Of a DNA stretch of 64,000 nt, positions 7,097 through 48,575 are shown one piece after another. The stretch lies in contig OX597834.1 of assembly GCA_951406725.2 (NCBI GenBank), positions 46,066,001-46,130,000 on the forward strand, given 5' to 3'. The notes beneath the pieces were generated by a model that was given only the letters and a program-made list of their open reading frames with translations, had not been told where the DNA came from and ran no database searches. The translations under genes and the position numbers were made by a program. Origin of the DNA: Octopus vulgaris. Its lineage: Eukaryota. Within the stretch, counting starts at the first letter, position 1, and every line of letters starts with the position of its first letter.

Positions 7097-7164
7097 CGTC
7101 CCCTTCAGGACAGCCACATTATGTTGGCAAATAGCATTTACTATATATATATATATATATATAT

Positions 7165-7828
7165 AAATAATAGTTATCGCCATACTAATATGGCATTCTT
7201 ATAAAAATAAGAATAAAGCTGTCCGCTTATTAGCTCCATGAGGCCATCGCCTTAAGTTAGCTATTTGATACACAAACTGTATCCATATAACCTTCGAACA
7301 AGGGAGGTCAGTCGCTCCACACTACTTGACTGGCAGCTACAGACGCGTTTCGGGGTATTACCCCTTTTCAATGCAGCGTAGCCAGACCAATAGGTGTCGC
7401 TTCTGACAATCTCTGTTCGAAGGTTTTATTTACCTAGCTTCGGTGGAATACATCCACTTGTTTTCAATAATAGAAATATTTAAATTACTAAGTCTCTCTA
7501 AAAGAGGACAACGGCAGCGTTTCCGGAAAATAATAGTTATCGCCATACTAATATGGCATTCTTATAAAAATAAGAATAAAGCTGTCCGCTTATTAGCTCC
7601 ATGAGGCCATCGCCTTAAGTTAGCTATTTGATACACAAACTGTATCCATATAACCTTCGAACAAGGGAGGTCAGTCGCTCCACACTACTTGACCGGCAGC
7701 TTTATTCTGGCCTCATGGAGCTAATAAGCGGACAGCTTTATTCTTATTTTTATATTAACTATTATTTTCCGGGAACGCTGCCGTTGTTCTCTTTTAGAGA
7801 GACTTAGTAATTTTAATATTTCTATTAT
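7165..7828 (-). mobile_element. Non-coding retrozyme / Penelope pLTR-like insert: 363-nt unit present ~1.5 times plus an inverted partial copy, flanked by (TA)n
   Basis: 7165-7338 equals 7528-7701 (one mismatch seen). 7708-7828 is the reverse complement of ~7563-7609 followed by ~7467-7539. Contains a hammerhead motif. Confidence 0.85.
7336..7377 (-). ncRNA. Minimal type I hammerhead ribozyme, U3-A8 variant
   Basis: Minus strand GCUGCA-UUGAAAA-GGGGU(AAU)ACCCC-GAAA-CGCG-UC/UGUAGC: 6-bp stem I, 5-bp stem II, palindromic ACGCGU stem III, GUC triplet. Confidence 0.8.
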
Positions 7829-7836
7829 ATATATAC

Positions 7837-7931
<95 letters not shown>

Positions 7932-47090: not shown

Positions 47091-47376
47091 TCCTTATTAA
47101 TATATATATATATATATATATATACGACGGAGTGTATACGTGTTTGTCTAATGTTATATTAAATAAGAGGATATCATTTCATATATCCATGCTTTGTATA
47201 CAGATAGAAAGATATATAAATATATATACGCATTCTTAAATATATATATATATACATGTATATAAGAAATTAAAAAAGGAAAATACGCACACTTACATGG
47301 TTTTAATATAATGTCGTTCATTTTTGGATCTCTAGTTAGTAAAGGGAGAGTTGAATACCTCACTGTTTCTGGGGTC

Positions 47377-48105
47377 AGACTTATTGAAAGACAATATCCA
47401 CCCTCTCTTATCGACGAGGGAATTAAACGTGCCAAACAATTAGAAACAAAAACACTAAGAACAAAAAATCATAGCACCACACCTCAAACCAAAACATTAC
47501 TTTTTATATCAACACACAGCCCCAGAAACAGTGAGGCATTCAACACTAATGTGCAAACTCTTCCTTTGCTAACTAGAGATCCAAAAATGAACGACATCCT
47601 GAAAACACACAAACTCATCAAATGCAAAAATCAAGACAAATCGCTAAAGAGACTACTAACAAATGCGAAGCTTTACAAAACAACCACGAAACCAACGGTT
47701 GAAAAATGTGGACGCCCGAACTGTGGAACCTGCCCCAACCTACTTGAAGGCTCGGATTTCCTTTTCAAACAGGGACAGAGGTTCAGAATTTAAACTAGTT
47801 TCACCTGTGCCTCTGAGAACCTAATTTATGTAATAACCTGCTCGTGTTGCGGTCATCAGTGCATTGGACAAACGTGTTTAACTTTGAGAAAGAGAATCAC
47901 TCTGCATAAGGAGCAAATCTGTTTCCCGCAATACAGAGAAATTCCTCTCAGTGAACACATAGAAAAATGTGCAGGTAACATCAAACCAAATTTCACAGTC
48001 TTCCCTTTCTACCAGTGCAAAGACACAATCTCTCAACTAGAACGCTTAAATAAAGAAACTTTTTTCATTGAAAAATACAAAACACGTCTTAATATGCACG
48101 CATAA
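47377..48105 (+). pseudogene. Penelope-like RT thumb / GIY-YIG ORF remnant (in-frame stop 47791-47793; YIG changed to CIG)
   Basis: ORF-track pieces 47311-47793 and 47884-48105 share a frame and are bridged by NLIY..C..C...CIGQT...R...H. Confidence 0.85.
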
Positions 48106-48384
48106 CCAACTTTTATATTTTTACATATTACATCACTGTACATAAATCCGCTACTAAACAAGGTCTTTTTTAAAACCTGTCTCTTTTTTGTACACATATT
48201 TATTCCCCACCCATTACCAAAACCTGAACAGTTATCTCCCTTACACACAACAATAACAATAATAACAACCAATTACCTCACTTTATTTGTCTACTTGTGA
48301 AGTCATTCACTCGTGAATTTCTTCACACACAACTTGGACCAAATTTCTTCTTAAGAAAAAATATATATTCATATAAATTAAACA

Positions 48385-48423
48385 GTATATCATGAATAGC
48401 GATAGCGAAACCGGTCGATATAT
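48385..48423 (+). ncRNA. Minimal type I hammerhead ribozyme, A3-U8 variant, in the Penelope 3' region
   Basis: GUAUAUC-AUGAAUA-GC(GAUA)GC-GAAA-CCGG-UC/GAUAUAU: 7-bp stem I, 2-bp stem II, palindromic ACCGGU stem III, GUC triplet, same sense as the ORF. Confidence 0.78.
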
Positions 48424-48575
48424 TAAAAATTATGTTAAAACCATGTAAGTGTGCGTACTTTCCTTTTTTAATTTCTTATATACATTACAACCCACAACGT
48501 GGGGACAACCGGAATTCCTCTTTTCTCTGTCTACTATACATGTATATATATATATGTATATATATATGTATGTGG

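Follow-up and report, generated by a model that had tools for sequence, protein, structure and literature searches.

Does the end of an inserted DNA copy record where its template RNA was cut? The role of the hammerhead ribozyme in vivo in Penelope-like elements (PLEs) and retrozymes is called a mystery in a review (PMC7761336), and copy ends at the cut would give direct genomic evidence for linear, cut templates. In the 64,000-nt stretch of Octopus vulgaris DNA analysed here (the window), a repeat stops just past the predicted cleavage site of such a ribozyme. A single copy is insufficient as evidence of this kind. Accordingly, the question has two parts, namely whether the junction in this copy reflects ribozyme cleavage of its template, and whether cleavage shapes the copy ends of the family to which it belongs.

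Anatomy of the insertion

The insert occupies positions 7165-7828 and is embedded in a (TA)n tract, with (TA)n at 7143-7164, the inferred target, on its left and (TA)n/(TG)n at 7829-7930 on its right. Both flanks are TA tracts, and a search for a target-site duplication longer than 4 bp met TA repeats on each side. The insert consists of 1.5 copies of a 363-nt retrozyme-like unit followed by an inverted arm. The full unit (7165-7527, RNA sense on the minus strand) is non-coding, has a GC content of 40% and is recognised as a monomer by its period, fold, tandem joint and GC content. There is no ORF of at least 120 aa within 7165-7828, and none for RT or GIY-YIG; nor is there a second copy of the repeat elsewhere in the 64-kb window. 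Together with a partial second unit of 174 nt (7528-7701, RNA sense likewise on the minus strand), the full unit makes a long arm of 537 nt. Positions 7165-7338 and 7528-7701 form a direct repeat with a period of 363, identical at 173 of 174 positions, the sole mismatch being 7331 T / 7694 C. The two sequences differ at the base directly past 7338 and 7701.

The earlier note on this DNA placed the repeat stop at 7701 (equivalent to 7338), the predicted minus-strand cut between 7342 and 7341 and the distance between them at 3 nt, and these coordinates are confirmed. It also took 7701 for the boundary of the insert. Position 7701 is instead an internal head-to-head junction, beyond which the insert extends to 7828. 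The plus-strand sequence past the long arm begins with a 12-nt inverted piece (7697-7708) that is the exact reverse complement of 7573-7584, as had been noted, and that resembles a short fold-back (templated insertion). It is followed by an inner piece of the inverted arm (47 nt, 7708-7754, plus strand), an exact copy of 7609-7563, and by an outer piece (7756-7828, plus strand) that copies 7539-7467 with three mismatches. The stretch between these two copied segments, at about 7540-7562, is predicted to form a hairpin and was skipped. The final 61 nt (7768-7828, plus strand), a copy of 7527-7467, are present at one insert end only, and we regard them as a tail on the basis of their length and of the pile-up of loose contig ends described below.

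The two arms overlap in the motif CAGCT (7697-7701), which is common to both; the switch point can therefore be placed no more closely than 3 to 8 nt past the predicted cut. Hence the distance of 3 nt stands for the end of the repeat and does not fix the exact point of the switch, and the RNA-sense 5′ end of the partial unit lies 3 (up to 8) nt past the cut. Both CAGCT and AGCTG occur once per monomer.

A predicted hammerhead in a highly structured monomer

A strict scan for type I hammerheads on both strands of the 64 kb returned one motif, on the minus strand at 7377-7336, with the cut after 7342. Motif scans and folds combined place the predicted ribozyme at 7330-7385, with cleavage after GUC (7342/7341) at a site that is intact in the insert. 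The second repeat copy begins at the fourth base of the predicted 3′ product, 3 nt past the cut. The predicted core, UUGAAAA, has a U3-A8 pair in place of C3-G8, and is surrounded by a 6-bp stem I with a bulged extension, a short stem II and a minimal palindromic stem III. Rfam gave no hammerhead match at the gathering score and only microsatellite noise at E values up to 10; the hammerhead of the 363-nt unit is a prediction from sequence. The U3-A8 core is already known from PLEs of Schistosoma, and ribozymes with a minimal palindromic stem III reportedly cleave better as dimers (PMC4209133).

The monomer fold is strongly stable (z = -7.05; none of 100 shuffles was as stable). The predicted shape is a rod capped by the ribozyme, which in the circular fold is free to form. 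Relative to the family majority, the window copy carries private bases at 7331, 7360, 7386 and 7390, of which 7360 sits in loop II of the predicted ribozyme. The change at 7331 is likely to postdate insertion, because it is of CpG type and confined to the first unit. In the four sequencing runs surveyed below, no variant at or above 2% was listed for 7336-7351 and 7361-7377 (ribozyme core and stem I). This is suggestive in that it fits conservation, and we assign no significance to it.

Copy ends across the family

The monomer (7165-7527) was compared with contigs of four of 24 sequencing runs. The four come from three studies, two of them under one organism label and two under others, and 76-100% of each run was read. 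Matching contigs numbered 3,999, 2,162, 1,640 and 995 per run and included many variants, so the 363-nt repeat is a multi-copy family common to several organisms. The tandem joint 7527 to 7165 is present in all four runs. Exact-pattern scans found no family copies among viral sequences (0 and 0), prokaryote genomes or metagenomes, the last with a pattern that included a base private to the window copy; a further metagenome scan gave one match, by chance, in unrelated GC-rich DNA.

Where do copies of this family end? Of 550 partly fitting contigs, 73 (36, 14, 12 and 11 in the four runs) end at 7467 with a TA flank. Position 7467 is the standard TA-flanked end of the family and the only clear TA-flanked pile-up. 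The earlier note proposed to test for a pile-up of copy ends at the cleavage site; in all four runs the ends accumulate at 7467 instead. Among the 24 of 306 loose-end entries that were listed, none falls at 7336-7345. The other 282 entries share about 312 contigs, or about 1.1 each (the smallest listed held 1, 3, 2 and 1 contigs), which is a soft bound, as the ranking rule is not given and one contig may have two loose ends. Thus a sharp family pile-up at the cut was not seen, and a diffuse cluster of single contigs is compatible with these counts.

Several other loose ends have simpler origins. Those at 7168 (12, 22, 13 and 12 contigs) and 7506 were rejected as termini, because most of their consensus agrees with a variant form of the adjoining unit where the reference stops; a true second start in the region 7165-7168 would look the same as this edge effect. 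Those at 7223, 7334 and 7387 were rejected as junctions, being sequence variants of the unit. At 7410, recurring foreign sequence joins the repeat in two runs of one organism (1 and 4 contigs), perhaps the sign of a subfamily, or of a parent element, whose sequence departs from the repeat at this point.

Three joints between opposite strands were recovered, with ends 103, 16, 56, 199, 22 and 298 nt after the cut. None of the six lies within 10 nt of it, which bounds the rate of such ends only to below 39%; two of six lie within 25 nt (P about 0.06, for a window chosen after seeing the data). Six 'skip' joints, excluded from the count of none in six, likewise include none that starts within 10 nt of the cut. 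Because the contigs are short and are interrupted at repeats, the survey misses most junctions.

The two joint ends at 16 and 22 nt could be read as the trace of an enzyme that halts close to the ribozyme although the RNA has no cut end. Such stalling, whether at the foot of the long stem I or, on a second pass around a circle, at a scar left by ligation, would leave a broad cluster of ends just 3′ of the cut. The predicted ribozyme does cap a long rod, and the short arm of a neighbouring PLE in the window stops 12 nt after its own predicted cut. The numbers are weak, however, given the post hoc window and joint orientations that are not given; moreover, the same site was passed once in the window copy without a stop, and on a second round the RNA would presumably be paired with cDNA and unfolded. 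We consider stalling of this kind decidedly unlikely.

Mode of insertion

The neighbouring PLE offers an independent view of how such insertions are built. It lies at 47256-48545 on the plus strand, is 5′-truncated, belongs to a different family and comprises an RT C-terminus, a zinc finger and a GIY-YIG domain (E = 7e-4, below the Pfam cut-off) with one in-frame stop. It is 77% identical to a protein with RT, zinc finger and GIY-YIG, and its only named protein relative is from Octopus bimaculoides. A minimal hammerhead with an A3-U8 core is predicted at 48384-48424, with the cut after 48416. The inverted arm again consists of two pieces, the tail measures about 58 nt, and the same 14-nt TA-rich palindromic motif occurs on both flanks. 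The long arm of this PLE stops about 1,040 nt away from its cut, so the two-arm anatomy needs no cut end; the short arm, which stops 12 nt past the cut, does however provide a second end close to a cut. We rejected this element as a parent of the 363-nt repeat, since the two show no similarity at the DNA level (243 of 300 shuffles reach as high a score); the tails of the two share only 9 nt (63 of 2,000 shuffles are as good). Elsewhere in the window, a non-LTR retrotransposon ORF fragment in two frames lies at 1915-2945 on the minus strand, with a weak zf-RVT match (E = 1.6e-4).

The insert at 7165-7828 is likely an ordinary Penelope-type insertion. A partial tandem, an inverted 5′-truncated copy and a tail at one end are standard in the PLE insertions described (PMC8557442; PMC3846280; PMC11167929), as are an AT-rich or microsatellite target and a type I hammerhead, the latter predicted here, and the neighbouring PLE, with its like two-piece arm and tail, shows the same plan. 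The 363-nt repeat differs from PLEs in that it has neither an RT/GIY-YIG ORF nor, in this window, a matched parent element, and its tail is 61 nt long, compared with the 30-40 nt given in PMC8557442. The protein of an anole PLE has been shown in vitro to nick AT-rich DNA on both strands and to extend each of them, and it begins reverse transcription at two positions within the RNA, the distance between which is the tail (PMC11167929).

The inverted arm is likely a second target-primed cDNA rather than the product of a template switch after run-off, because its outer end (7828) maps exactly to 7467, the standard end of the family. The proposal that the RT switched template to make the whole inverted segment is thereby mostly unsupported for the arm; it survives for the 12-nt piece, which alone looks like a fold-back from the end of the long cDNA. 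The more complete form of that proposal, in which the enzyme runs off at the cut, folds back to make the entire inverted arm and leaves family ends clustered at the cut, can draw on the junction position, on the 12-nt piece as a true inverted duplication of nearby sequence and on the self-priming proposed for PLE inversions (PMC3846280). Counter to this, nothing about a fold-back accounts for a stop at 7467, which lies 302 nt into the long arm and yet is the standard end of the family. The outer arm also carries 3 mismatches in 73 nt compared to 1 in 174 between the direct copies, a weak difference (P 0.08-0.22), and the lack of a family pile-up at the cut largely refutes the model as a family rule. 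We therefore judge it very unlikely.

The junction could instead have formed after insertion, by DNA repair or recombination between adjacent opposite copies, or could be an assembly error. End-joining repair, too, typically leaves small jumps, of which there are three here, and templated insertions like the 12-mer (PMC11724301); the flanks are microsatellites and the contig comparison used the monomer rather than the junction. Yet both outer ends lie on TA tracts, and the like anatomy found in the unrelated PLE of the window, and described as standard for PLEs (PMC8557442), leaves such an origin only a very slim chance.

Our preferred reading, which as a whole we put somewhat short of an even chance, is that a Penelope-like enzyme primed two cDNAs on opposite strands, that these met head to head and that the long cDNA ended at a ribozyme-cut RNA end. 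Nicking and priming of both strands of the TA target would come first, a step in which we have good confidence. The short cDNA would begin at the standard site 7467, skip the hairpin and halt at 7609, and the long cDNA would begin 61 nt further in (7165 = 7528), which would leave the tail on one end only. The two outer ends, at 7167-7173 and 7467-7473, both start with ATAATAG, to which a TA primer could anneal in each case; this may be why there are two start sites 61-63 nt apart. The long cDNA would then copy 537 nt through one uncut ribozyme site and, with about an even chance for this step, run off the 5′-OH end of a partly processed multimer with the loss of about 3 nt. Its CAGCT end would prime on AGCTG at 7580-7584, add 7 nt and join the end of the short cDNA. 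Against the scheme stands the lack of a match for the mobilising element, the one PLE of the window showing no DNA similarity.

Chance, microhomology and run-off at the cut

How surprising is the position of the junction? For one end chosen in advance, the chance of falling within 3 nt on the 3′ side of the cut is 1.1%, and within 8 nt on either side 4.7%; it rises to 8-32% if any of about eight breakpoints is eligible. The earlier note allowed that CAGCT microhomology could explain the junction by itself. We rejected this as the whole account of where the junction lies, since a non-local inverted partner of at least 5 nt is available to 110 of the 363 possible ends, only three of which lie within 4 nt of the cut and four within 9 nt. 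In the short arm, partners of only 3 and 2 nt are available to ends that lie 1 and 2 nt from the cut, and the first 5-nt partners appear for ends 3 and 4 nt from it (2 or 3 nt lost). These partner lengths fit run-off at the cut followed by slight trimming.

Arguing against run-off, the template passed one uncut site, since 7342/7341 is intact inside the insert. From this copied, intact site we take the template to have been either circular or a multimer cut at only some of its sites. The intact site and the likeness of 173 in 174 positions fit a circular template, which has no 5′ end (PMC7229834), and the retrozyme model proposes circular templates; on the side of run-off, linear multimers with 5′-OH ends are described for amphibian retrozymes (both PMC7229834). 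The listed loose ends and the six joint ends of the family survey also weigh against run-off, as do the distance of the neighbouring PLE's long-arm junction from its own predicted cut and the fact that cleavage by the U3-A8 core of the repeat is only predicted. For the anole PLE, mutating the ribozyme left insertion in vitro normal, and no RNA-seq read stops at the cut (PMC11167929).

These points lend weight to a two-ended insertion from a circular or uncut multimeric template in which the long cDNA came to its end, by a stop or by trimming, at a random place, and the AGCTG of the short arm met the sole CAGCT of the monomer, which by coincidence lies beside the cut. The single CAGCT per monomer, the lack of a family pile-up and the 1.5 near-identical units, which fit rolling copying of a circle (PMC7229834; PMC4209133), all agree with a random stop, as does the higher chance that applies when about eight breakpoints are available. 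What it must accommodate is the 1-4% chance for the one end that is relevant a priori, and the three or four of 110 microhomology ends that lie this close to the cut. We regard a random stop as a serious possibility, if well short of an even one.

On assumed inputs, run-off in the window copy has odds of 0.2-0.4 if 1% of junctions arise in this way, 0.2-0.6 if 1-2% do, a range that also leaves room for a random stop, and 0.5-0.8 at 5%. Overall, run-off from a cut RNA end in the window copy stands at near even odds. The suggestion of a template with a ribozyme-cut 5′ end thus retains some force for this copy, given the 1-4% chance, and loses it for the family, which shows no sharp pile-up. A ribozyme-made end, if real, would be a one-off in the window copy rather than a family rule, and under our preferred reading only a minority of the family's insertions would take the cut-end route.

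Relation to known elements

By the features examined, the 363-nt element likely behaves as a metazoan non-LTR retrozyme with Penelope-type anatomy. As in the non-LTR retrozymes described (PMC7229834; Li et al. 2026, bioRxiv 10.64898/2026.07.22.740005), there is a type I hammerhead per unit, here predicted, in a non-coding tandem unit of 150-450 bp (363 here) with a GC content below 50% (40% here), and the monomer is strongly self-paired with the ribozyme free to fold. The units of mussel retrozymes measure 350-390 in the same sources. The repeat differs from these elements in its U3-A8 core variant, and in its inverted arm and one-sided tail, which are not described for retrozymes in the accounts cited. 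An 'active' retrozyme as defined in Li et al. 2026 has two consecutive complete ribozymes; the window copy has one and falls outside that definition. Among open-licence papers and bioRxiv we found no octopus retrozyme, though the supplement of PMC7229834 may list related invertebrate ones; in the same literature we found no mapping of retrozyme copy ends on the cut site.

A precedent for a genomic 5′ junction defined by a ribozyme exists in R2 elements, in which an HDV-like ribozyme cut sets the 5′ end of the RNA (Eickbush et al. 2013, PMC3774820). When the R2 cut is at the element end, 5′ junctions vary by chance microhomology (PMC3774820). The likeness has limits, as the ribozyme classes differ (HDV-like versus hammerhead) and the R2 cut tracks the junctions of full-length copies, whereas in the 363-nt family no pile-up at the cut was seen (PMC3774820 for R2).

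Implications

A broader possibility is that retrozymes are inserted by Penelope machinery from linear cut multimers, and not only from circles, leaving a genome-wide cluster of inner ends 1-25 nt past the cut. We think this unlikely. If true, the inner-end cluster would be a germ-line fossil record of hammerhead cleavage and would settle the role of the ribozyme in Penelope-type transposition.

The solid gain is a retrozyme-like family with a fixed, TA-flanked end and a one-sided tail. Retrozymes have been argued to be non-autonomous derivatives of PLEs (Li et al. 2026, bioRxiv 10.64898/2026.07.22.740005). The fixed end and the tail are an anatomical sign of Penelope-type mobilisation, and add to the phylogenetic argument made there.
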